Below are positions 3,771-58,917 of a stretch of DNA of 59,023 bases, piece after piece (within the stretch, counting starts at the first letter, position 1; every line of letters begins with the position of its first letter). Source of the stretch: Candidatus Zapsychrus exili. GTDB taxonomy: Bacteria; Omnitrophota; Gorgyraeia; Zapsychrales; Zapsychraceae. The stretch lies in contig JAVCCJ010000070.1 in the NCBI GenBank assembly GCA_030765585.1, forward strand, positions 1-59,023, in the 5' to 3' direction. A model generated the notes under the pieces. It was not told where the DNA came from. It made no database searches and saw only the letters and a program-made list of their open reading frames with translations. Both the position numbers and the translations under genes were made by a program.

Positions 3771-6437
3771 ATGACCAAATCTCTTTTGTCTACGACTTCT
3801 ATTGACAAACTTTATGTAAGCAAATATTTATCACTTTTAAACGTCAAACAAGCAAATGTTTTAAAAAATGGCAGCATATCTTCATCTGAAGCTCATATAT
3901 CATATAAAGATGGTCTAGTTAGTATGACAGGCGATCTTTCGTTAAATGAAATAGATATTAACGCTAATGAGAAACAAAAATTCAAGGGAAACGCAAAAGG
4001 ATCTAATCTCTCTCTTACTCTTTTAAACAAAGAACTAAATTTATCTGGAAACGTATCTTTAATATCTGAAGAAACATTTATCTTCCCTCATACTTATATT
4101 AAAGGAGAGTTATCTCTTAATATTGATAATTTATACATACAACAAAACAATGGTTTATTTAAAGGAAGCATAGCGCTTAAAAACGAGTCTCCAGGCTATC
4201 TTATAAAAATAAGCGACAAGCAAGAAGTTTTAGGGAATATAAACATAGATGATGCCTCTATTGCCTGGGGTGACAAAGGGATAAATATTAATGGCAAAAT
4301 ATCGACTAATCCAACAACTATCAATATCTCCCCTGACATAAAGATAAGTGGAAACATTACCTCTACAATCAATTCATTAACTTTTGCTCGCGACAAAAGC
4401 ATTTCTCTTCAAGGCAATATAAATATCGATCAGGCCAATATAAAAAATGGCGACAAACAAAACATATCCTCTAACATAGCACTCGACAATGCATCTGTAT
4501 CTGTAAAGGGTTCTGATGTACAACTTCATGGAAAATTTAATTTAAATAATACGAGCATAAGTCTTCAAGATAATAAAACAATAAAAGGAAACATCTCTAC
4601 AGTAAACACTAATATAAATTTTAAAAACAAAAAGCTAGATATACAAAGCGATCTAAAGATTAATAATACTGATATTTCGTTAGGAGAGAATAAAAGCATA
4701 AAAGGAAATGTGATATCAGAAAACACAACCCTCTCTTATGAAAACAAAAAGATACTTTTAAGGACATTATCTGCTTTTACTGAAACAGAAGTGCAATTTG
4801 ATGGTATTAATTTTAATGGCAGCCCTAATGTTGAATTCTCTGTCGCAATTGATCCTGGCCAAGAAACTAAATATTCCGGAAAGGTTGAACTAGCAGAGGC
4901 TTCTGTATCTGGTGTGCCAAAAGTTGGAGCGATAAATAATATAAAAGGAAACGTCTTATTAAACGAGAATAAAGTAGAAACCGAACTTATTGAATTTAAT
5001 ACAAATGATGTCGACGTCAAACTATCAGGCAACCTAGAAAACTTTTTAAATCCAGTTATCGACATAACAGCTTCATCAGATGAAGTCCTTTTAGAAAATA
5101 TATCTAAATTTATACCTGCCGCAAAGAACAAGGCTAAGATAAAAGCATCTGGCAAGGCATCTGTTACGGCAAGCTATAAAGGCTCTATCAAATCTACTGC
5201 AGACTCTCTAATTGATGCAACAGCAAAATTAGAAGGAGTCAAACTATCGACCCCTAAACTTGCAGAAGACATAACTAATGTGTCTGGAGAAATTAGATAT
5301 AAAAATGATTTAATAACCTGGAGTGGGCTTACAGGAACATTTAAAAATAAAGACTATAAGATAAGCGGTCAGTTGACAGACATTTCTCGACCTACGATAG
5401 CATCAAGAATATCATCTGAAGACCTTACGGTATCAACTCAGATAAAAATTCTTAGAAAAGCATTTCAAATACTCTTACTTAAAGGAAATTATTTAAATTC
5501 CTCTTTTGATCTCTTAGGAGACGTACACTTAACAGAAAATATGGGTCCTGATTTAGATATTAAAGGCACGCTTTCCATTAATCTAGAAGATTTAAATGCA
5601 ATACCAAATGAATTAGTTAAGAGCAAGCTAGCTAAACTAAAACCTCGCGGCATAATTTCTTTCGACGGCCTATTTAAAGGAAAAACAAAAGATTGGCGCA
5701 ATTGGGATGTGACGTTCAAGGCTCAATCTCCAAAACTATCACTGCTAAATTATTTTATCAATAATGTCTCTATTGCATTTTCGCAAAGAGATCAGACTGT
5801 AACCAATTTTGATATTTTATCTAACATATATAGTGGAGACTTAAACATCTCTTCTTCTGCAGACCTTAGAGATATTGATATACCAATAAAATTGGCTGCT
5901 GATATTAAAGGTTTGCAATTAAAACAACTTCTTAAGAGCGCTAACATAAAAAGAAACATGTCAGGTAATGTTGCTTTATCTCTTAATCTAAGAGGTCCAG
6001 TAAAAAATTATGACAAGATAAAAGACTCTGGTAGCTTTGCAATATCAGAAGGATATCTTGGTCGACTTATTCCAGCATTTAAAAATGCTGACTTTAGAAA
6101 CGCAAGGGCTGACTTCCTTGTTAGAAATCAGAAAGTCTTTACGGAAAATGCGCAAATAATAAGCGATACCGTTAAAGTAAGGGCTGAAGGTTGGGTAGAT
6201 ATAAAACAAAATATTGATTTTAATCTTATACCTTCTTTTTCTGAAACTCCTGTCTTAAACACTGAGGCTCTTAAGATTGATCCATCATCAATTCTTAGTC
6301 GTGCATTAAATATCAAAGTAACTGGAAAATTGACTAAACCTAGATTCCAAGTAGAAACCTCGCCTGTTAAGATATTAGAAAATACAACTGAAATTATAAG
6401 AGATGGAATAGGAAGTCTGCTGGAAGGGCTTTTTTAA
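3771..6437 (+). CDS. AsmA-like/YhdP-type beta-groove protein, C-terminal part
   Basis: 888-aa beta-rich ORF ending in an AsmA_2-like motif (IKVTGKLTKP); frame open back to 3693; no RBS at 3771. Confidence 0.75.
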   Translation: MTKSLLSTTSIDKLYVSKYLSLLNVKQANVLKNGSISSSEAHISYKDGLVSMTGDLSLNEIDINANEKQKFKGNAKGSNLSLTLLNKELNLSGNVSLISEETFIFPHTYIKGELSLNIDNLYIQQNNGLFKGSIALKNESPGYLIKISDKQEVLGNINIDDASIAWGDKGININGKISTNPTTINISPDIKISGNITSTINSLTFARDKSISLQGNINIDQANIKNGDKQNISSNIALDNASVSVKGSDVQLHGKFNLNNTSISLQDNKTIKGNISTVNTNINFKNKKLDIQSDLKINNTDISLGENKSIKGNVISENTTLSYENKKILLRTLSAFTETEVQFDGINFNGSPNVEFSVAIDPGQETKYSGKVELAEASVSGVPKVGAINNIKGNVLLNENKVETELIEFNTNDVDVKLSGNLENFLNPVIDITASSDEVLLENISKFIPAAKNKAKIKASGKASVTASYKGSIKSTADSLIDATAKLEGVKLSTPKLAEDITNVSGEIRYKNDLITWSGLTGTFKNKDYKISGQLTDISRPTIASRISSEDLTVSTQIKILRKAFQILLLKGNYLNSSFDLLGDVHLTENMGPDLDIKGTLSINLEDLNAIPNELVKSKLAKLKPRGIISFDGLFKGKTKDWRNWDVTFKAQSPKLSLLNYFINNVSIAFSQRDQTVTNFDILSNIYSGDLNISSSADLRDIDIPIKLAADIKGLQLKQLLKSANIKRNMSGNVALSLNLRGPVKNYDKIKDSGSFAISEGYLGRLIPAFKNADFRNARADFLVRNQKVFTENAQIISDTVKVRAEGWVDIKQNIDFNLIPSFSETPVLNTEALKIDPSSILSRALNIKVTGKLTKPRFQVETSPVKILENTTEIIRDGIGSLLEGLF

Positions 6438-6537: not shown

Positions 6538-6762
6538 AGATCCCTGCCTTCGCAGGGATAAATTAAACTCTGTCATTCCAGTTTTTTGCAAAGCAAAAAT
6601 ACCGGAATCTCCTCAACTATTCACTTAATACTAACTAGATCCCTGCCTTCGCAGGGATAAATTAAACTCTGTCATTCCAGTTTTTTGCAAAGCAAAAATA
6701 CCGGAATCTCCTCAACTATTCACTTAATACTAACTAGATCCCTGCCTTCGCAGGGATAAATT
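6538..6762. repeat. 99-bp tandem repeat (about 2.3 copies) built from palindromic GTCATTCC/ATCCC-GGGAT units
   Basis: AGATCCCTGCCTTCGCAGGGATAAATT at 6538, 6637 and 6736 with identical intervening sequence. Confidence 0.9.
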
Positions 6763-49086: not shown

Positions 49087-50706
49087 TTATTCATCTTGCG
49101 TAACGCGCAAAACTTCTTCTTTTCTAGTTACACCTTTTTCCACTTTATCCATTCCATCGTCTCTTAGTGATTTCATTCCAGAAGATACTGAAGCTTTGTA
49201 TATAGACTCCATCGAAGCGCGATCCATCATAAGCTGTTTTATTTCCTCATTAGGAACCATAAGTTCATATATCCCTATCCTACCCTTATATCCTGTTTCT
49301 AAACAACTCTTACAGCCTTCTCCTTTACATTCACAACAAATGGTTCTAATAAGACGTTGTGCAATAACACCTATAATAGAAGACGATAAAAGAAATGGCT
49401 CAACCCCTATATCAAGTAGTCGCGTTACAGCACCAGCTGAATTGTTTGTATGCAAAGTAGCAAAAACTAAATGACCTGTTAGAGCAGCTTGAATAGCAAT
49501 CTCAGCTGTTTCTAAATCTCTAATTTCACCAACCATAATCACATCCGGATCTTGCCTTAATATAGAACGCAGACCGTTTGCAAAAGTTAAATCAGCATGA
49601 TGATCTACTTGAATTTGCCTAATACCTGCAAGTCTATATTCAACAGGATCTTCAATTGTTACAATCCCTTTGTCTGAAGTATTTATAGTATTTAAGGATG
49701 CATATAAAGTTGTGGTCTTTCCAGACCCAGTAGGCCCTGTTACCAATATTATTCCATTTGGTTTATGGAGAAGGTCTCTATACGAATTCAAAATTTCTTC
49801 CCCAAAACCAATTTGATCTAAACCTAAAACTATGTTGCTGGTGTCCAATAGCCTTAGCACAACATTTTCTCCATTTACTGTAGGCACTGTTGAAACACGA
49901 ACATCAATTTGTCTGTTTTCCATTTTCATATGAAAACGTCCATCTTGGGGCTTACGCCTCTCTGATATATTCATATCAGCTAAAATTTTTAGACGAGATA
50001 TTATTGCCGCCTGAAAATGCTTAGGAGGAGATTCTCTTTTGTGTAATATACCGTCTATACGAAATCTTACCTTAAGACTATCCTCTTCCGGTTCAACATG
50101 AATATCAGACACTCCCTCTCTTATCGCCTGAGTTATCATTGTGTTAACTAGCTTGACCACCGGAGGCTCTTCTCCTATATCTTTAAGCTTAGCTAGATCA
50201 ATAACATCACCATCAGCAATTTCTAATTTTTCCTTATCTATAGAATTTATTATTTCAGCCATACTACCTTGGACAGTATAGTGATCATCCAATGCCTTTT
50301 TAATTTCTTGCTCAGTTGCTATTGCAGGCTCTATCATCAACCCTGTCTTCATTACAACTTCGTCTAAAGCGTAAATATTAAAAACATCTACCATGGCACA
50401 CGTCAAAGACTTGCCTATTTTTAATATTGGTATAAGCTGATGTTTTCTTGCAAGCTCTTCCGGAATGAGTTCAATGACTTTAGAGTCTATTAAATAATTT
50501 TCTAACTCTATGTGGGGAACATCCATCTGCTCAGAAATAAAATTTACTAAATCTTCCTCTGCTATAAAACCAAGTTTCAATATAATTTTACGTACAGGAT
50601 CGCCGGTCTTCTTTTCTTCTTCTTGAACTTCATTCCACTGAAGATTGCTTATAACTCCATTCTCCAACAGAAGTTCACCTAATGATTTCTTTGATTTCTT
50701 TGCCAT
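49087..50706 (-). CDS. GspE/PilB extension ATPase with an MshEN-like N-terminus
   Basis: SDIHVEP, GPTGSGKT, LRQDPD, GEIRD, TGH. Confidence 0.95.
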   Translation of the reverse strand: MAKKSKKSLGELLLENGVISNLQWNEVQEEEKKTGDPVRKIILKLGFIAEEDLVNFISEQMDVPHIELENYLIDSKVIELIPEELARKHQLIPILKIGKSLTCAMVDVFNIYALDEVVMKTGLMIEPAIATEQEIKKALDDHYTVQGSMAEIINSIDKEKLEIADGDVIDLAKLKDIGEEPPVVKLVNTMITQAIREGVSDIHVEPEEDSLKVRFRIDGILHKRESPPKHFQAAIISRLKILADMNISERRKPQDGRFHMKMENRQIDVRVSTVPTVNGENVVLRLLDTSNIVLGLDQIGFGEEILNSYRDLLHKPNGIILVTGPTGSGKTTTLYASLNTINTSDKGIVTIEDPVEYRLAGIRQIQVDHHADLTFANGLRSILRQDPDVIMVGEIRDLETAEIAIQAALTGHLVFATLHTNNSAGAVTRLLDIGVEPFLLSSSIIGVIAQRLIRTICCECKGEGCKSCLETGYKGRIGIYELMVPNEEIKQLMMDRASMESIYKASVSSGMKSLRDDGMDKVEKGVTRKEEVLRVTQDE

Positions 50707-50774
50707 GATAATTATTAATGTCTGGAAATTTTGAATAAAACTTTAGCAGGTCGGAATTGACAATTTACTCTAGA

Positions 50775-51143
50775 CTATTCTCCTATAAGATCTTTTAACG
50801 TTCCTAACAATTCTTCTGAATTAAATGGTTTATTTATGTAAGCATTAGCACCAACTTCTTCACTCATTTCTTGATCTTCTTGCTGAGCTTTAGCAGTAAA
50901 CATAACAATTGGAATGTTATGAAATCTTGTATCTGCTTTAAGCAATCCACATACTTTATAACCATCCATCTTAGGCATCATAACATCTAAAATTACAAGG
51001 TCAGGAAGCTCCTCTTTTGCCTTATCTAAACCTTCTTGACCATCACTTGCAGTAATAACTTCATACCCTGCTGCCTGAAGTCTAAGTTCTACCATTGAAA
51101 TAATCTCTGGCTCATCATCTACTATTAAAATTTTTTTAGCCAT
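50775..51143 (-). CDS. Single-domain response regulator
   Basis: ILIVDDE, LDVMMP, FTA, KPF. Confidence 0.93.
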   Translation of the reverse strand: MAKKILIVDDEPEIISMVELRLQAAGYEVITASDGQEGLDKAKEELPDLVILDVMMPKMDGYKVCGLLKADTRFHNIPIVMFTAKAQQEDQEMSEEVGANAYINKPFNSEELLGTLKDLIGE

Positions 51144-51199
51144 TTTACATCTCCTTCATTTCTTTAATATTGTCAAAAATATTTAATTAGTACTTATTT

Positions 51200-51250
51200 T
51201 GTGCAACCAAAACATAGGTTACACTTTAAACCGGATACATAGGTTACACA
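51200..51250. mobile_element. Orphan IS end, IS481-like
   Basis: TGT-N9 then ACATAGGTTACAC twice (51212, 51237); no transposase adjacent. Confidence 0.5.
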
Positions 51251-51257
51251 TTTTTGG

Positions 51258-51283
51258 AGATTCCTGCCTTCGCAGGAATGACA
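51258..51283. repeat. Half palindromic element AGATTCCTGCCTTCGCAGGAATGACA
   Basis: Reverse complement of the 38897-38922 hairpin. Confidence 0.8.
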
Positions 51284-51352
51284 AACCCGACGCTGTCATT
51301 TCTGGTGCAGAAAAAATCCACGAGCTACAAATCACAATCCACGAATCATGAA

Positions 51353-53044
51353 TCACTTATTTTCCATTGATATTAATTTTTTCTCTATTATTTTTTGTCT
51401 TTCTTTTTGCTTCTGTTCTGCTGCTTTAAGATATTTCTCGGCCTTGTCAGCATAGCTGCTATATGGAAATTCTATAATCAATTTCTTAAACGACTCTATA
51501 GACTTTCTATAATTTCTTAACCCGGAATACAATATCCCTATTTTATAAAGAGCGACATCTATATTGTTAGATTCAGGAAATTGATTTACTATCATCTTAT
51601 AAGTATTTAATATCGCAGAGTTTCTATCCTGTTGTGTCTTGTCCTTAGATTCGACAGTATCTTCTATTTCAAGATTACTAGCATGTTCCCATAACTTTGA
51701 TACAAGATTTGAGTTTCCAACAGCCTCTATATTTAGAAATATTTCTTCTTCTGCTGCACCCTTGCCTATCTTTTCCATTTCTTCTTTAGTCCTTATAATG
51801 TGCGGTGTAATAAATACTGTTAGCTCTGTTTCCTCTAAATCTGTACTCTTCTTTGAAAATAACTTTCCTATTACAGGTATAGACCTTAAACCAGGAATAC
51901 CACCTACAATGCGATCGTCTTTTTTATTTATAAGGCCACCTATAATAATGGTTTCCTTATCTCTTACTCGAATAGTTGCATCAGCCTCTCTTGTTGTAAT
52001 TCTTGGTCCAGCATCTAAAGCTGCAGAAATTGATGACACCTCTGGATGAACATTCATAGTAATCCATCCGTCTGGAGACACTAAAGGAGTCACTCTTAAT
52101 GTAGTACCGACATCAACAAACTTTGTTGTCTCTGTTGCAGTACCGCTTGAATCTCTCGTGGTTTCCAAATAAGGAAATCTCTCGCCTATAATAATACGAG
52201 ATTCTTTTCCATTTATTGTTGCAATAGAAGGACTGGCTAATATATGCGCTTTATGTTCTTGAACAAGCGCATCAATTGTAACACTAGCTGTTAAACTTTT
52301 TAACACTGTAGCTATTGTCAAGTCTCCTCCTGACAAAGTCGTAGAAGGCCCTTCTAGGGAAGTATCAAAATTGGCTGACTCATCAAAAGAAGTAGAGCGT
52401 CCAAATATTCCTCCTCCAGCATTTGCACCATTAGGATCATATGTTAAGCTCATTTTTGTTCCAAGATTCTCAAACGCCTTTGATTGAATATCTACAATTT
52501 TTGCTTCTATTAATACTTGAATAGGCTGTATATCAACTTCACTTAAAACCCGTCTTACTTTTCTTAAACGAGACGGATAATCTGTTACAACCAAACTATT
52601 CGTAGCTTCGTTTACCTGTATATCTCCTTGAATAGAAATTGTCTTAAAAAGTAACTGTTTTGCTTTCTCAGCAGTTAAATAACTCAAACGAATTGATGTT
52701 GTTTCTTGACCCATACCCTCTGTTCCTGGTCCAGGAATAATATAAATCAAATTTCCTTGTCTTGTATATGCATATCCATTAACTCTAAGTATTGCGTTTA
52801 AAGCTTCATCTATAGTTACGTTCTTTAAAGTAGCTGAAACAGTTCCGCTAATATCTTTTGTCATAACAATATTTAAATCATTAGAATATGCAATAGCCTT
52901 AAGAGCCATAGTAAGTTCTACATCTTTATAATCTACCGATATAAGCCCCTCTTCTGCGCAGACAGAACTAGCCAAAAAAACAGCTAAAACTGCTATCGCA
53001 ATGACAAAAAATCTCAAATTTTTAATTAACTTTTTCATTATCAT
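51353..53044 (-). CDS. Secretin (GspD/PilQ) with a C-terminal TPR domain
   Basis: QVLIEAKIV, IIIGERFP, DVG..L.VTP, IIGGL..IP.L.SIP.IG.LF...VFITPHI, then TPR-like helices. Confidence 0.9.
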   Translation of the reverse strand: MIMKKLIKNLRFFVIAIAVLAVFLASSVCAEEGLISVDYKDVELTMALKAIAYSNDLNIVMTKDISGTVSATLKNVTIDEALNAILRVNGYAYTRQGNLIYIIPGPGTEGMGQETTSIRLSYLTAEKAKQLLFKTISIQGDIQVNEATNSLVVTDYPSRLRKVRRVLSEVDIQPIQVLIEAKIVDIQSKAFENLGTKMSLTYDPNGANAGGGIFGRSTSFDESANFDTSLEGPSTTLSGGDLTIATVLKSLTASVTIDALVQEHKAHILASPSIATINGKESRIIIGERFPYLETTRDSSGTATETTKFVDVGTTLRVTPLVSPDGWITMNVHPEVSSISAALDAGPRITTREADATIRVRDKETIIIGGLINKKDDRIVGGIPGLRSIPVIGKLFSKKSTDLEETELTVFITPHIIRTKEEMEKIGKGAAEEEIFLNIEAVGNSNLVSKLWEHASNLEIEDTVESKDKTQQDRNSAILNTYKMIVNQFPESNNIDVALYKIGILYSGLRNYRKSIESFKKLIIEFPYSSYADKAEKYLKAAEQKQKERQKIIEKKLISMENK

Positions 53045-53286
53045 ATTATGCTGTTAAACTCTTCTGATTGAGCAAACTCTCTCTGTATTAATCTTAATGT
53101 ATAGCCAACATTCATCATGTCTCTTATCTTTTCAATACGTTTAGACACGTCTTCCACATCATATAAGCGCTTATTCTTTTTCTTCTGATGCACATTAATA
53201 AGGCCTATATTCGTGTAATAATTGACAGTGGCTTTTGAAACATTAAACTTCACAGCCACTTCTTCTATGTTAATTAATTCTCTCAT
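53041..53286 (-). CDS. Short MerR-family HTH protein
   Basis: EVAVKFNVSKATVNYYTNIGLI...RLYD...GYTLRLI. Confidence 0.85.
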   Translation of the reverse strand: MRELINIEEVAVKFNVSKATVNYYTNIGLINVHQKKKNKRLYDVEDVSKRIEKIRDMMNVGYTLRLIQREFAQSEEFNSII

Positions 53287-53499
53287 AAAACGATTTTACT
53301 CTTTTTTACCTTAGAAGTTGTTAATACTTATTATCAAGCACTAAGTTCTAATACCTTTTGATATTATATGATGATATTACTTAATATATGGTAATAAATG
53401 TTAACAGTCAAGGAATTCTACACATTTCTTTAACAATTAATAATATTCTTATATATAAATAATATACACTTCTATAGGAAAGTATCCACTACGGTCGGA

Positions 53500-53886
53500 C
53501 TAGTCTTCGTTAAGCAATTCTCTTATCTTCTTTAATAGCTCTTCGGGTGAGAAAGGTTTCGCTATAGCAGGATAATAAACGTCATGAACATTTATAGGAC
53601 AATCGCTCGCCTGATCTTCTCTTGTTATAGCAGATGTAAGAAAGAGTACTGGTATGTTTTCTGTTGATGGATTCTCTTTAAGTCTACGAGCGGCTTCAAC
53701 TCCATCCATATTAGGCATCATTATGTCCATTACTATTAAGTCTGGTGAACATTCTTCAACTTTAATAAGACATTCTGAACCATCTTGTGCAACTATTACA
53801 TCATAATTGTTAGCTATTAATCTTGCTCTTATAAGTTTAAGTAAGTCTTCTTCGTCGTCTACAATTAATATTTTTCTTCCAGTCAT
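53500..53886 (-). CDS. Single-domain response regulator
   Basis: ILIVDDE, MDIMMP, FLTS, KPF. Confidence 0.92.
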   Translation of the reverse strand: MTGRKILIVDDEEDLLKLIRARLIANNYDVIVAQDGSECLIKVEECSPDLIVMDIMMPNMDGVEAARRLKENPSTENIPVLFLTSAITREDQASDCPINVHDVYYPAIAKPFSPEELLKKIRELLNED

Positions 53887-53929
53887 TTTAAAATTATTTT
53901 TCTTTATAAATTGTCCATTTACATTGTTT

Positions 53930-54316
53930 TTATTTAAGAAGGTCAGCTATTTTTCCTAACAATTCCTCTGTATCAAAAGGTTTTGTCATATATGCAGCAA
54001 CACCTTCGACTTGAAATATTTCTTCCATGTCTTGCTTAGCTGTTAACATAATAATTGGGATAGGATTTATGTTATCTATTGTTTTTAGCTCCTGCAAAAA
54101 TGTATACCCATCCATACCAGGCATCATAATATCTAAAACAATTAAATCAGGTTTTTCTTCCTGCCATACCTTTAAACCTTCGGCTCCGTTCTCAGCAGTT
54201 ACTGTTTCATATCCATTAGCTCTAAAACGAGTAGCAAGTACATCTAAAAGATCTCTCTCATCGTCAACTATTAATATTTTCTTACCCCGCACCTTTTTAT
54301 TAGTTTCTAATTCCAT
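53930..54316 (-). CDS. Single-domain response regulator whose start was replaced by the inserted element
   Basis: KKILIVDDE, LDIMMP, KPF; the MELETNKKVRG N-terminus comes from the element; AGGAG at 54325-54329. Confidence 0.9.
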   Translation of the reverse strand: MELETNKKVRGKKILIVDDERDLLDVLATRFRANGYETVTAENGAEGLKVWQEEKPDLIVLDIMMPGMDGYTFLQELKTIDNINPIPIIMLTAKQDMEEIFQVEGVAAYMTKPFDTEELLGKIADLLK

Positions 54317-54579
54317 TTTTTAATCTCCTTTTTAGTTCGCTCATTCCTTTACCATGATGTTTTAAAGCTTTCTCACGATTACGAGCATCTTTTTCTGAAT
54401 TAAATGCTTCACAATATATTAAACCCCATGAAGCATATGCTTTTGAAGATATGCACTTCTTATCGTTATGCTCTTTTAATCTTCTCTTTAGATCATTAGT
54501 CGAACCCAAATAGAACTTGTCTATTTTTTCCTTACTTTGCAATAGATACACATAATACATTGCAAAAAAGGTGCGGGGT
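54284..54579 (-). mobile_element. TIR-bounded 296-bp element carrying only a GIY-YIG nuclease gene
   Basis: 15-bp perfect IR ACCCCGCACCTTTTT (54284-54298)/AAAAAGGTGCGGGGT (54565-54579); TT(A) duplicated on both sides; removal restores ATG ACT AAG AAA ATA. Confidence 0.8.
54300..54560 (-). CDS. GIY-YIG nuclease (UPF0213-like)
   Basis: YYVYLLQS...FYLGST.DL.RRL.EHN...A..REK.LK; also in frame with the host ATG at 54587. Confidence 0.9.
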   Translation of the reverse strand: MYYVYLLQSKEKIDKFYLGSTNDLKRRLKEHNDKKCISSKAYASWGLIYCEAFNSEKDARNREKALKHHGKGMSELKRRLKNGIRN

Positions 54580-54620
54580 TTAGTCATGTTATCCCCTTTT
54601 TTAATTTTTATATTATAGAC

Positions 54621-55028
54621 TTAAGATTCTAAATCTTTTCTAAACTGCTTTTCCCCTTCTTCTAACAATATACACTTTAAAACATCGCGACGACTAACAA
54701 CTCCAACAAGACGCTTGCCATCTACTACAGGAACTCTCTTTATGTTCCTTTGAACAAACAATCTACTTATTTCCTCAATTGGCGTATCTTCGTTCGCACT
54801 TATTATATCTCTACAAACAAAATCAGAAATAGCTACTTTTGTAGTTCCTAAAAAGTCATAAGCTACGATTAAATCTTTTTCTGTTACAACGCCCAGTACA
54901 TCATTATTGTCATCTAAGACAATCAATCCACTTATTTGAATTTCAATAAGCATATTTATTGCATCTTTTATAGTAGTGTCAGATTTAACTGTTATAACGC
55001 TTGTTGTCATTATATCTTTAGCGAACAT
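54621..55028 (-). CDS. CBS-domain pair protein
   Basis: AKDIMT..VITV, GVVTEKD, RVPVVD...VGVVSRRD. Confidence 0.92.
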   Translation of the reverse strand: MFAKDIMTTSVITVKSDTTIKDAINMLIEIQISGLIVLDDNNDVLGVVTEKDLIVAYDFLGTTKVAISDFVCRDIISANEDTPIEEISRLFVQRNIKRVPVVDGKRLVGVVSRRDVLKCILLEEGEKQFRKDLES

Positions 55029-55048
55029 CTTAATTCCCCCTATAAATA

Positions 55049-58000
55049 TTATATCATTTCTATTATTAAATTGACTAAGCTCTCAAAGCCACCTGTTTTC
55101 TGCAAAACAGGAGTATCACCTAGCTTGCTATATTCACTTCTAACATCGCTAATATTTTTTGCAGTTAATATTATAACTGGAATAAAAGCCGTGCTAGGAT
55201 TTTCCTTCAATCTACCCAAAACTTCATATCCGTTCATATTCGGCATAACAATATCTAAAACTATAATATCGGGTGGATCTTTTTCAATAACTCTTAAAGC
55301 TTCTTCTCCGTCGAACGCCACAGACATTTCTATATTTCTCGACTTAAGTCTTGGCTTTAATATTCTCCCAATCTGAGGATGATCATCTACGACTAACAAT
55401 CTCTTTTGTCTAGTTTTCTCTTTGAAAGCAAATTCTATTAAATCGTCCTTATTATTACCATTATCTGGATAAACCGCTAATCCATAATTAATCTCTAGCT
55501 CAGACTTATCTTTTAGGCCAAAAGACTCTCTAGAAAAAGCATTCTTAATATTAGCAAGAACGTTGACTCCTCCACGTCTATCTGTTTCTGGAAGCGCTAT
55601 ATATATTGTCTCAGTGCTATATAGTATTATCTTGTCCAAAGGACGAGACACAACCCTAGATAATGTCTCTAGCACCTTATTAGTTACGTCTATTGATTTT
55701 TCTGTGCCATGTTTACTCTTTATACCTCCAATTGTAGACAGCTGAAGAACAGCAAGACTTGTTTTTATATTTTGACCCCTAGTATTATAAATAATTTCTT
55801 CAATATACCTATCAAATGACGCTTTTGATGTTTGATAGCTAGGCAAAGCTATAAAAAATGTTGTGCCTTCTCCAACATTACTTTCTGCCCAAATTCTACC
55901 TTCATGAACCTCAATAAGAGCTTTACAAATAGCAAGCCCAAGACCAGTTCCTTTTATGCCAGGTCCAGAAGTCCTGTCAAATTGAGTAAATTTCGTAAAA
56001 AGTTTTGGCATATCTTCTTCTGATATTCCGACTCCATTATCTTTAACACCACATATAACTTCTTCCCCCTCAACTTTCACAAATAATTCTATTTCGCCTT
56101 CGTCAGCAGTAAATTTATGAGCATTATTTAAGAAATTTGTAATAACTTGTATCATTTTATCTGAATCAACAAAGGCAATGATTTCATCAAACTCAAATTT
56201 CACATTAAGTATCTGTTTTTTAGTATCTAATACTTTTTTATATGCCTCAGCTAATTGAGATAACACATCTTTTAAATTAACTAATCCGCGCTTAAGCGTT
56301 ATCTTTCCAGATTCAATCTTAGAAATATCAAGTAAATCATTTATAATAGTATTTAAACGTACTAAATTATTTTTAGAAGTTTTAAGTAGGTCTTTTTGCT
56401 TATCTGTAATATCTCCTACTATACCATCTAATATAAGATTAATTCCTTCTGTCGAAATCGCAAGAGGTGTTCTAAGCTCATGAGATACAGTAGACACAAA
56501 GTCTGACTTAAGCTGATCGAGTTTCTGAAGCTCTGAATTTTTTGCTTCAAGGTCTTTATATAAAGACTTTATAGCTTGATTAGTTTTTTGAAGCCCCCAA
56601 GCTTGATTTTCTAATTCTTCTTTTGTTTTTTGAAGCTCCTCTTCATATTGTTTTCTTTCAGTAATATCTTCTGCTACCTTTAAATAATGAGTGATATCTC
56701 CATGTACATCACGAATAGCAGAAAGTGCCGCTATCTCCCAATAAAGATCTCCATTCTTCTTTTTATTATGAAACTCAATAGTAACTGATTCCCCTTTTGA
56801 TATTTTATCCCACATATCTTTATATACTTCTGTAGGCTGTTCTCCAGATTTTAAAACACGTGGATTTTGACCCCTAACTTCATCTAAAGTATAACCATTT
56901 AGTTCTGTAAATTTTGGATTAACATACTCCAAATTTCCATCTAAATCTGTAATTGCAACGACACTTGGGCTTTGCTCAATTGCGCTTGATAACTTACGCA
57001 TCTGGTCTTCGGCAATTTTTCTCTCAGTTACATCTTCAAAGCTTTCTATACCTCCTATAATATTTCCCTCTTGATCTTTCAAATAATCTACATTCTTAGA
57101 AATAGATCTAAACTGTCCATCTTTTGTCTTAATACGACATTCTCCCCCTGTAATAGGCTTATCTATTTCCTTGCTAAACAAGCTACATTTATCTCCACAT
57201 GGATGATCTGCGAATATAATGCAATTCTTACCAATAATATCCTCATATGAATACCCTGTAATCTCTTCAGCTTTTTTATTCCATGAAGTAACTTTTTTAT
57301 CTTTATCGACTGTAAAGATAGCACTCGGAATAACTTTGAAAATAAGCTCAGCATAATCTTTTGCCTCTTGAATTAATCCTGTTGATTTATCTTTTAGTCT
57401 AAATGCTAACGAAAATCCTAAAATTAAAATAACTAAAAAGAAAGTTACTGCAATGCCTACCAATCTATATATAAAAACTCTGTCCATACCGGTCAAAAGG
57501 ACCACAGACCATCCCTTTAAACCAATATGTTCTCTTGATACAAAAAACTTACTGCCCTGAAACTTAATAATATATTTACCTTTAAATCTATCATCAAATA
57601 TTGACTCAAAAGGCTTTATGCCAAACTGCTTTGTTTCTATTATTTCTTCCTGCTTTTTCTTGTCTAATTTCCACAAACTCTTATAAAGAAACTCAGGATT
57701 ACTTGCTATAAAAACTATTCCATTCTTATCAACAAAAAAGAATTTTGTATGCTTTGTTAAATTCTCTCCCACCTCTTCAATATTCCTCTTAATAACTGCC
57801 ACTCCAATAGTGTTACCCTGATGATCCTTAACTGCCGTACCTGAATAAAAACCTCTTTTTTGGGATGTTATTCCCAAAGCAAAATAATTACCTGATCCAC
57901 TTTCTATAGATTCCTTAAAATAAGATCTAAATTTATAATTCTTACCTAAAAAACTTGCCTTATCATCTCTGTTGGAAGACACTATAACTTCTCCATCTAA

Positions 58001-58333
58001 ATTCATTAAATAACAAATGGAATTATCTAAATATTTACTATGTCTATCTACAGATTTATTAACATTCTTTATGTTTTCAGATGAATTATCAATTAAAACT
58101 GCAAGTATCTCAGGAGATTCTGAAAGAAGACGGCTGACTGTTTCAGCTTCATCAAAAGTTTCTTTAAATAATCTTGAAAGAAATGTTACAGAAGACTCTG
58201 CCTCTTCAAAAACTTCTCTTTTAGCATGTTCTCCTAAATACTTAGTTGCAACGCTTCCTAGAAAAATAATTGCCAACAGAACAGTTACAACACATAACCA
58301 CCCGCATTTAAATATACTTTTTTTCATATCCAT
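55049..58333 (-). CDS. Hybrid sensor kinase: Cache, two PAS, HisKA, HATPase, degenerate GGDEF-like, REC
   Basis: FRSYF Cache motif, two PAS/PAC domains, SHELRTPL, NAHKFT, DNG.G, GTGLGL, GLAVYP, C-terminal receiver. Confidence 0.92.
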   Translation of the reverse strand: MDMKKSIFKCGWLCVVTVLLAIIFLGSVATKYLGEHAKREVFEEAESSVTFLSRLFKETFDEAETVSRLLSESPEILAVLIDNSSENIKNVNKSVDRHSKYLDNSICYLMNLDGEVIVSSNRDDKASFLGKNYKFRSYFKESIESGSGNYFALGITSQKRGFYSGTAVKDHQGNTIGVAVIKRNIEEVGENLTKHTKFFFVDKNGIVFIASNPEFLYKSLWKLDKKKQEEIIETKQFGIKPFESIFDDRFKGKYIIKFQGSKFFVSREHIGLKGWSVVLLTGMDRVFIYRLVGIAVTFFLVILILGFSLAFRLKDKSTGLIQEAKDYAELIFKVIPSAIFTVDKDKKVTSWNKKAEEITGYSYEDIIGKNCIIFADHPCGDKCSLFSKEIDKPITGGECRIKTKDGQFRSISKNVDYLKDQEGNIIGGIESFEDVTERKIAEDQMRKLSSAIEQSPSVVAITDLDGNLEYVNPKFTELNGYTLDEVRGQNPRVLKSGEQPTEVYKDMWDKISKGESVTIEFHNKKKNGDLYWEIAALSAIRDVHGDITHYLKVAEDITERKQYEEELQKTKEELENQAWGLQKTNQAIKSLYKDLEAKNSELQKLDQLKSDFVSTVSHELRTPLAISTEGINLILDGIVGDITDKQKDLLKTSKNNLVRLNTIINDLLDISKIESGKITLKRGLVNLKDVLSQLAEAYKKVLDTKKQILNVKFEFDEIIAFVDSDKMIQVITNFLNNAHKFTADEGEIELFVKVEGEEVICGVKDNGVGISEEDMPKLFTKFTQFDRTSGPGIKGTGLGLAICKALIEVHEGRIWAESNVGEGTTFFIALPSYQTSKASFDRYIEEIIYNTRGQNIKTSLAVLQLSTIGGIKSKHGTEKSIDVTNKVLETLSRVVSRPLDKIILYSTETIYIALPETDRRGGVNVLANIKNAFSRESFGLKDKSELEINYGLAVYPDNGNNKDDLIEFAFKEKTRQKRLLVVDDHPQIGRILKPRLKSRNIEMSVAFDGEEALRVIEKDPPDIIVLDIVMPNMNGYEVLGRLKENPSTAFIPVIILTAKNISDVRSEYSKLGDTPVLQKTGGFESLVNLIIEMI

Positions 58334-58674: not shown

Positions 58675-58917
58675 TTACTTTAAATTGATTATATTTCTTT
58701 TTTCTTCTGAAGTTAATCTCTTTATTTCAGCTTCTCTTTTAAGCGTGGATGGTCTGTCAGGATGTTCTTCTTTATAGAGAAGCTCTTTAAAACCAAAAGC
58801 GCGAGTAAACTTAGCTCCAACACTATTTTTATGCTCGAGCATTCTTCTTTCTATATCTTTAGTAATGCCAGTGTAGGGCGTATTTTTTTCTGTTTCTATT
58901 ATATATACGTACCACAT
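58675..58917 (-). CDS. GIY-YIG nuclease (UPF0213/YazA-like)
   Basis: WYVYII...YTGIT.D.ERR..EH...GAKFTR...KREAEIK. Confidence 0.88.
   Translation of the reverse strand: MWYVYIIETEKNTPYTGITKDIERRMLEHKNSVGAKFTRAFGFKELLYKEEHPDRPSTLKREAEIKRLTSEEKRNIINLK

Follow-up and report, generated by a model that had tools for sequence, protein, structure and literature searches.

We analyzed a 59,023-nucleotide stretch of Candidatus Zapsychrus exili (contig JAVCCJ010000070.1 of assembly GCA_030765585.1, called the window throughout), in which a small GIY-YIG nuclease gene bracketed by inverted repeats lies within a response-regulator gene. On the minus strand, the order is a gene for a CBS-domain protein, a spacer of 33 nt that contains GGGGA and, 4 nt further on, an ATG, then ACT AA, the repeat-bounded cassette, and the rest of a single-domain response regulator (receiver), which resumes with AAG AAA ATA TTA ATA GTT GAC GAT and runs to position 53930 (Table 1). 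An inverted-repeat search recovered the two arms as the top inverted pair in 54100-54800, each 15 nt long, 100% complementary, and spaced by 266 nt; an 86-aa GIY-YIG open reading frame (ORF) within perfect 15-nt repeats is what the initial annotation of this DNA had described. The duplicated TT reported there was also read directly from the sequence, as was its alternative under a shifted boundary, TTA at 54282-54284 and at 54580-54582. In gene orientation, the flanks can be written as TAAA and TAAG, a match at three of four positions, or as a perfect AA or TAA.

Table 1. Features of the repeat-bounded cassette and the adjoining genes (window coordinates)
Feature	Coordinates	Strand	Remarks
Whole cassette, arm to arm	54284..54579	-	296 bp, or 294 bp should CCCC...GGGG at 54285-54578 be the true ends
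Upstream arm (gene orientation)	54565..54579	-	minus strand ACCCCGCACCTTTTT; host-frame translation PRTFF
Downstream arm (gene orientation)	54284..54298	-	translated KKVRG within the restarted receiver ORF
GIY-YIG nuclease ORF	54300..54560	-	86 aa, beginning MYYVYLLQS... at its own ATG; the 14 residues invariant in the family are all present
In-frame leader MTKPRTFFA	54561..54587	-	links the original receiver ATG (54585-54587) to the nuclease ORF
Extended nuclease ORF, outer ATG start	54300-54587	-	95 aa
Shine-Dalgarno-like GGGGA of the original receiver start	54592..54596	-	4 nt upstream of the ATG
Flanking repeat copy, host-start side	54580..54581		plus strand TT; in a 4-nt model, 54579-54582 = TTTA
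Flanking repeat copy, receiver-body side	54282..54283		plus strand TT; 54281-54284 = CTTA, 3/4 match to TTTA
New receiver start inside the cassette	54314..54330	-	AAGGAG 54325-54330, 8-nt spacer, ATG 54314-54316
Interrupted single-domain response regulator body (receiver)	53930..54283	-	intact, open frame
CBS-domain gene upstream	54621..55028	-	synteny anchor for the empty-site comparison

The cassette is compact, and only 35 of its bases lie outside the nuclease ORF. Two overlapping frames appear in the ORF listing: a 95-aa nuclease that reads through the upstream arm and a 128-aa receiver that reads through the downstream arm. Two copies of the arm-end 10-mer are present in the window (0.35 expected), a count reached in 3 of 100 shuffles, and four in the 2.04-Mb genome; taken alone, the window counts are only moderate evidence.

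We then removed the cassette in silico. The ORF at 53930-54316 is a receiver domain (PF00072, E 2.7e-28), and scripted deletion of the 296 bases plus one AA leaves GGGGA, a 4-nt spacer, an ATG, and a 119-aa receiver that starts MTKKILIVDD, the start the initial annotation had predicted for the emptied gene. Paralogous receivers in the window start in the same way (MAKKILIVDD at 50775-51143 and MTGRKILIVDD at 53500-53886). Compared with the restored protein, the present receiver of 128 aa has a net nine residues added at its N terminus. Its inner ATG overlaps the final nuclease codons and is formed by Asn-Gly codons; at this position, at least 90% of aligned relatives carry Ser instead of Gly.

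A DNA search of 41 relatives, all of other genera, returned pieces only 67-69% identical, and a strict empty allele was unavailable because no relative from these genera exceeds ∼69% DNA identity. Empty-site-like loci were found at the protein level. A homologue of the CBS protein is present at 13 loci in the relatives. At 4 of these, the next gene is a same-strand receiver no more than 146 nt away, and a nuclease gene does not intervene; the native starts are MKKILIIDD, VEKKKKILIVDD, MSRKKILIIDD, and MSGKKILIIDD. Among the remaining CBS loci, one has a receiver 676 nt away and eight have none within 700 nt. No receiver compared at the relatives’ CBS loci begins in the manner of MELETNKKVRG, the start expected if the present N terminus were native. 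The clean restoration and the short native starts of the four relatives bear out the proposed insertion into codon 3 of the receiver gene. Three public DNA runs (salt-lake metagenomes) and no listed RNA run contain this stretch, and the Logan contigs of the DNA runs, at a depth of ∼3-5, have the filled form across both junctions.

The window protein matches the Pfam GIY-YIG family PF01541 (E 8.5e-13, 48.9 bits, cut-off 22.6); no further Pfam domain was found in it, leaving a bare catalytic core without a DNA-binding domain. An alignment of 39 sequences, the window protein included, shows no variation at Y5, Y17, G19, R27, H31, and E63. The conserved Tyr of GIY, Tyr of YIG, and Arg are among these, as is the Glu, and by analogy with the residues mutated by Chenal et al. 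2025 (PMC11893778), the two Tyr residues and the Glu would be catalytic. The top PDB sequence matches were UPF0213 BH0048 (1zg2, E 1.5e-11), SLX1 structure-specific endonucleases (E 9.1e-8), and EF2693 (1ywl, E 1.1e-6), with I-TevI (E 0.009) and UvrC marginal. On this evidence, the nuclease appears closest to UPF0213/Slx1-type minimal GIY-YIG domains, and it resembles the Ssn nucleases of Chenal et al. An Asn is common near the C terminus of the homologues (consensus ...RLxNS...), an observation from sequence alignment only. Dunin-Horkawicz et al. 2006 describe a C-terminal Asn as typical of the UvrC/homing-endonuclease lineage, place the selfish GIY-YIG enzymes in a lineage other than the prokaryotic Slx1-like group, which they treat as housekeeping, and report a GIY-YIG domain recently inserted into an HsdR gene.

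A protein search yielded 1119 relatives of ∼85 aa each. The closest proteins are 75-64% identical (P0002-P0014), and a metagenome scan produced none closer than 58%. For two homologues (P0003 and P0013), the upstream gene-call starts include ...PRTF..., the translated arm. Among viral contigs, a relative is encoded in only 7 of 79 candidate stretches and is near full length in just one, so phages do not appear to be a main home of the gene.

We next examined whether homologues elsewhere are bracketed in the same way. Homologue loci were taken from species genomes (80) and metagenome contigs (80), giving 161 with the window, of which 153 had enough flank. A bracketing repeat was defined as an ungapped complementary pair scoring at least 12, with one arm within the 80 nt that precede the start and its partner around the stop codon. 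Such a repeat was present in 93 of the 153 loci, compared with 4 of 153 when left and right flanks were mismatched and 1 of 153 with shuffled flanks, a decisive control against chance. The 93 repeat-bounded loci, spread over several phyla, carry the same small nuclease in elements of 265-365 bp. Their arms are locus specific, yet they share a conserved outer (A)CCC[C/A][C/G][C/A]C, the inner arm being variable; pairing between arms is 96% Watson-Crick over 1450 positions (78 elements). The bracketing repeat is a family trait, and its two arms co-vary. The repeat motif with its conserved end is in this way tied to GIY-YIG genes, an association on which the initial annotation had made its proposal depend.

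These results bear on the simplest alternative, an ordinary gene between the CBS and receiver genes, with a repeat that arose by chance or serves as a terminator or attenuator and a receiver whose native start is MELETNKKVRG. It would be consistent with a single copy in the genome and with public runs that show the filled form only, and a terminator-like lone hairpin with the same stem motif does occur at C51:13544. A repeat found family-wide, a receiver restored cleanly with its own ribosome-binding site, and syntenic relatives that lack the gene all count against this alternative, which we consider extremely improbable. The lone hairpin itself (C51:13544-13569) is intergenic and has the end motif on both arms, one G:T mismatch, and a T-run after it; it is either a collapsed element remnant or an ordinary terminator.

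The family bears several signs of movement. Among 76 non-redundant elements, direct repeats of at least 4 nt flank 17 (2.2 expected) and repeats of at least 3 nt flank 22 (6.0 expected), those most common beside CCCC...GGGG being TTGA, TGAA, and TAAA. Five small candidate-phyla genomes of 0.4-1.7 Mb contain 12, 5, 6, 4, and 3 nuclease matches; several copies in them have stop codons and retained arms, and the arm sequence differs from copy to copy. Of 121 genomes sampled from the class of G042, 98 contain 1-16 matches at E ≤1e-10. The 9-mer end motif occurs 75 times in genome G041 and 90 times in G042 (16 and 21 in the backwards control), often as plus/minus pairs 40-300 nt apart. When 21 such motif-pair regions were fetched, they yielded 23 ORF-less elements of 64-303 bp with perfect arms of 9-21 nt. 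An identical TNNA 4-mer stands on both sides of 13 of the 23, where 1.6 were expected and the maximum in 2000 permutations was 7. Over ∼20 nt, moreover, the ORF-less arms agree with the arms of the nuclease-bearing element that their own genome carries.

The pattern is that of an autonomous element with miniature derivatives, and the window copy fits it. We are highly confident that segment 54284-54579 belongs to a mobile family and reached its present site by insertion. The initial annotation had raised the idea of a minimal mobile element associated with a small GIY-YIG nuclease, and all of these features support it: repeats across the family, flanking duplications, multiple and decayed copies, and ORF-less derivatives.

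Individual loci show further forms. A 303-bp element (L235, G041:C2:7156-7458) has the same ends, a TAAA duplication, and a GC-rich noncoding interior without a nuclease ORF. At L112, L113, L120, and L160, a short palindrome built from the element’s two arms around a 3-nt loop lies directly upstream of the full element and looks like an ORF-less copy inserted in tandem.

Copies occupy structured-RNA genes as well as protein-coding regions. Rfam placed copies in 23S rRNA (L066, L070), 16S rRNA (L035, L044, L048), and RNase P RNA (L019, L026, L030, L041) and adjoining tRNA genes (L082, L089). By their flanks, copies at 10 non-identical loci were placed just before the conserved AGGAAAGTCC of RNase P RNA, and a recurrent 23S site is also occupied. 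In L026, the cassette forms a 293-nt insert where a small RNase P RNA helix has its loop, and its CCC...GGG ends are aligned as the helix itself. Copies that adjoin tRNA genes (L089, L124/L126) have the first 9-11 bases of the tRNA duplicated across the element. The other copies, that of the window included, are within or between protein-coding genes. Such positions suggest that structured RNAs tolerate the stem or even benefit from it.

The P3 position of RNase P RNA is occupied in many Saccharibacteria-type genomes (L015, L019, L023, L030, L038, L041, L091, L096, L097), where the cassette arms may serve as the P3 helix. In the literature searched, we found no report of P3-position cassettes or of tRNA 5′-end duplicates.

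Recurrence at the same RNA positions is what would be expected of homing-type spread with RNA-level tolerance, in which the nuclease cuts empty alleles, repair copies the cassette, and the inverted repeat forms a transcript stem like those of RNase III-cut rRNA intervening sequences. GIY-YIG is a classic homing-endonuclease fold. The 10 RNase P RNA loci are filled without flanking duplication, copies lie at hairpin positions of rRNA and RNase P RNA where their arms replace or extend the native stem, and the predicted window RNA fold closes the terminal stem (minimum free energy -71.3 kcal/mol, z = -4.07 versus shuffles). GIY-YIG ORFs are, in addition, known from non-intron insertions in rRNA genes of the candidate phyla radiation (CPR) (Tsurumaki et al. 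2024, PMC11270868), although these authors placed the GIY-YIG insertions outside spread by homing. The window protein is a catalytic core only, with no DNA-binding domain, and ORF-less copies are scattered by the dozen over sites unrelated to one another, with TNNA duplications. Nor is there a match to group I/II intron models or a sense-strand wobble bias. A tree was built from 136 proteins once duplicates of identical sequence, stop-containing ORFs, and ORFs shorter than 70 or longer than 120 aa had been dropped. In this tree, which is weak because the proteins are only 86 aa long, the RNase P-site proteins are not one clade and are scattered, with a common ancestor spanning 100 tips, while 23S site A (5 copies) and one further site of unassigned identity (6 copies) are each monophyletic. 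As a general account of the family, homing is quite unlikely; it may well describe the old, duplication-free RNase P RNA copies.

Two related classes were set aside for the window copy. A search of intron families against window positions 53800-55100 at E up to 1 returned none, the only match being LhrC at E 0.11, well below its gathering score, and a group I/II intron with a homing endonuclease was ruled out by the absence of an intron-model match. An rRNA intervening sequence was rejected because the copy sits in a protein-coding gene.

We also looked for other transposases that could move the element. A DDE-type insertion sequence (IS) was rejected, as the element’s only ORF is the GIY-YIG gene and three DDE families, DDE_Tnp_1 (PF01609), DDE_Tnp_4 (PF13359), and DDE_3 (PF13358), were not found in the five element-bearing genomes G041-G045. 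An IS200/IS605 or REP-RAYT element was likewise rejected, as the element does not encode a HUH Y1 transposase. DDE_Tnp_1 was also not found in the window’s own genome, and among the five genomes only G041 and G042 have rve matches. The initial annotation had allowed that the ends might match those of a DDE IS elsewhere; within the three families searched, which set the extent of this comparison, no DDE element with these ends was found.

The principal competitor is an enzyme acting in trans on elements in which the nuclease is a passenger: most plausibly a hairpin-acting Y1 enzyme (HUH, IS200/IS605 or REP associated) or an unseen DDE enzyme, with the GIY-YIG gene serving, for example, as an addiction or anti-excision factor. 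The terminal motif is absent from the flanks of eight of nine Y1_Tnp loci examined (5/6 fetched and 3/3 in the window’s genome), the exception being G042:C4, and G043 has six nuclease matches and no Y1_Tnp match. The same cargo in 93 repeat-bounded loci of several phyla and the failure to find the three DDE families also count against a passenger role. ORF-less arms share ∼20 nt with the nuclease element and only 8 nt with the IS200 hairpins. Furthermore, IS200/IS605 elements make no target duplication. In favor of a passenger role, 4-bp duplications of the TNNA type are typical of dimeric transposases. Passive carriage of the nuclease is, on this balance, unlikely.

The family was compared with several known systems. 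Ssn nucleases, which consist of a single GIY-YIG domain, were shown by Chenal et al. 2025 (PMC11893778) to bind hairpin repeats flanking their own genes and to cut single-stranded DNA beside them, a layout that the authors likened to an IS. The window nuclease is alike in being a single GIY-YIG domain of similar size (Y5, Y17, and E63 against the mutated Y6, Y17, and E64) whose gene lies between cognate repeats in an IS-like arrangement, with the cognate repeat dispersed in many copies in some genomes. Unlike the Ssn genes, the window family is flanked by the two arms of one long-range repeat, not by two self-contained hairpins, and its end motif is unrelated to the NTS motif given in that paper. 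It also has 4-bp duplications and ORF-less derivatives of the type of MITEs (small transposable elements bounded by inverted repeats), and copies lie inside genes, whereas NTS repeats are reported there as rarely in genes. The family may belong among the Ssn/repeat pairs; the window protein scores only 23.7 bits against the homologue of its own genome that is flanked by SRM-like repeats.

That homologue’s surroundings deserve description. Across the genome, ∼40 hairpin repeats of the GTCATTCC...GGAATC type (SRM-like) were counted, against one in the backwards control. Those in the window are at 6572, 6671, 19138, 38898, 38939, and 51259, one of them between a receiver gene (50775-51143) and a secretin-like gene (51353-53044). 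A distant small GIY-YIG gene at C22:13358-13750 has two SRM-like hairpins flanking it in inverted orientation (C22:13308-13750), which is the layout published for Ssn nucleases and SRM repeats (PMC11893778).

The CPR rRNA insertions of Tsurumaki et al. 2024 (PMC11270868) resemble the present family in being neither group I nor group II introns and in lying at the tops or bases of rRNA stem-loops, and L035, L044, L048, L066, and L070 are alike. Terminal motifs, duplications, ORF-less derivatives, and non-rRNA copies are not reported in the main text of that paper, from which the term “inverted repeat” is absent.

REP/REPIN-RAYT and IS200/IS605 systems share with the window family a small nuclease gene, cognate palindromes, dispersed hairpin copies, and probable action on single-stranded hairpins; they differ in that the window family’s enzyme is a GIY-YIG hydrolase and not a HUH tyrosine enzyme and that target duplications are present. 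RAYTs are single copy and domesticated, whereas the nuclease gene of the window family is multicopy and decaying. Like DDE insertion sequences and MITEs, the family has terminal inverted repeats and both autonomous and miniature members, and part of its copies show a short target duplication at a preferred site, but the window element lacks a DDE transposase and has room for 86 aa only. With 23S_rRNA_IVP-type intervening sequences and I-TevI it shares, respectively, an ORF in a stem-bounded rRNA insert and the GIY-YIG fold; it has no intron ribozyme and no DNA-binding extension, and its elements extend far beyond rRNA. The class called undescribed in the initial annotation is thus partly foreshadowed by the IS-like Ssn genes (PMC11893778) and the CPR rRNA insertions (PMC11270868). 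In the literature searched, supplementary data aside, we found no paper on a GIY-YIG element of bacteria that combines terminal inverted repeats with target duplications.

Taken as a whole, the locus is probably best explained as a transposon-like GIY-YIG element inserted in a receiver gene, with the host gene surviving. Elements of this widespread selfish family, ∼270-365 bp long, each consist of a single gene for a ∼85-aa UPF0213/Slx1/Ssn-like nuclease between ends of the form (A)CCCC[G/C/A]CAC...GTG[C/G/T]GGGG(T). The window copy most likely inserted at a TAAG/TAAA-like site 8 nt past the receiver ATG, fusing the nuclease ORF in frame to the receiver’s ribosome-binding site and ATG. The receiver would restart at the inner ATG, which has a good AAGGAG site, and read in frame through the downstream arm. 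The host gene would survive because the nuclease borrows the host start and the receiver restarts inside the cassette. The nuclease would recognize its cognate ends, probably as a two-arm stem in single-stranded DNA, as Ssn does with its hairpin repeats, and would make the breaks by which the element is freed or copied. Insertion at TNNA would leave a 4-bp duplication after repair and ligation by the host, and ORF-less derivatives with the same ends would be moved in trans. The repeat, the insertion relative to relatives, the architecture and conserved ends of the family, the flanking duplications, and the multicopy, decayed, and ORF-less copies are observed, and we infer the role of the GIY-YIG protein as mobilizing enzyme, its single-stranded substrate, the insertion chemistry, and the two-start translation.

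Several observations weigh against this interpretation. Thirty-three of the 76 elements have no flanking repeat, all of the RNase P P3-position copies among them, and the length of the flanking repeat varies from 0 to 9 nt. At the window itself, the flanking 4-mers agree at only three of four positions, and the element is single copy in its genome. Mismatches between arms are G:T (sense strand) in 24 cases and A:C in 17 (p = 0.35), and as G:T does not exceed A:C, a strand-specific hairpin receives no backing from them. A nuclease homologue is present in each of the six genomes that have a strong excess of the end motif; since 98 of the 121 genomes sampled from G042’s class have one as well, the association is uninformative. 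The initial annotation had proposed looking in reads for excised or circular junctions; in the three public runs, available as low-depth contigs only, the filled form was seen and no excised or empty joint was found, a result that for this reason is no evidence for or against excision. Y1_Tnp homologues are present in four of the five element-bearing genomes, and the window’s genome has three. In G042, short hairpins stand on either side of an IS200-like tnpA (158 aa; L236, G042:C4:92500-93800), and their 8-bp stems, CCCCGCAC/GTGCGGGG, are the same 8-mer as the ends of that genome’s GIY-YIG and ORF-less elements. These hairpins and the wide occurrence of Y1_Tnp keep alive the small chance, discussed above as passive carriage, that a different enzyme acts in trans. 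Finally, GIY-YIG enzymes are hydrolytic, and we know of no strand-transfer activity among them, so that host functions must be assumed. Nevertheless, we lean slightly toward the GIY-YIG protein as what moves the element. The broader proposal we put forward only tentatively, as somewhat doubtful: a new prokaryotic DNA transposon superfamily with a ∼85-aa GIY-YIG hydrolase as sole protein and “transposase,” CCCC...GGGG stem ends, a 4-bp TNNA duplication, MITE-like derivatives driven by that protein, and colonization of essential structured-RNA genes at hairpin positions, and of gene starts, in a manner that leaves the host gene functional.

Other small GIY-YIG genes occur in the window and elsewhere in the genome. 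A second GIY-YIG ORF in the window (58675-58917, minus strand, 80 aa, PF01541 E 5.1e-16) has only a 10-nt AT-rich inverted pair nearby. Three more small GIY-YIG genes lie directly upstream of tRNA genes (C54:7406-7666, C26:1-219 and 4988-5161, C24:3942-4208), with GC-rich hairpins between the GIY-YIG genes and the tRNAs whose 3′ arm overlaps the first tRNA bases; in C26, an 8-nt repeat of the tRNA 5′ end flanks a palindrome of 44 nt. Contig C26, 5.2 kb long, carries one and the same GIY-YIG ORF truncated at each of its ends and may be circular or a repeat. The 58675-58917 ORF and the genome’s other small GIY-YIG ORFs were rejected as copies of the element, being of different subfamilies and having no CCCC-type arms. 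Around the cassette, ORF translations from 49087 to 58333 include a PilB-like ATPase, a secretin-like protein, a small MerR-like protein, three single-domain receivers, the CBS protein, and a large hybrid sensor kinase. With Pfam checks for the receivers and CBS only, this region looks like a regulatory cluster for a type IV pilus or secretion system.

To our knowledge, the accepted classes of prokaryotic transposon all use DDE, DEDD, HUH, serine, tyrosine, or Cas1 enzymes. If the interpretation is true, an 86-residue GIY-YIG hydrolase as sole protein would add a transposon class and would be near the smallest autonomous mobile element known. Small sequence-specific nucleases with short cognate sites are also of practical interest as DNA tools. 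The element would further suggest a mobile-element origin for the pairs of Ssn nucleases and repeats. It would account for the non-intron GIY-YIG insertions in rRNA genes of candidate phyla and add RNase P RNA, tRNA, and protein-coding genes to their range. The window copy, in turn, would exemplify low-cost residence in a gene, achieved by in-frame capture of the host start together with a built-in restart for the host protein.

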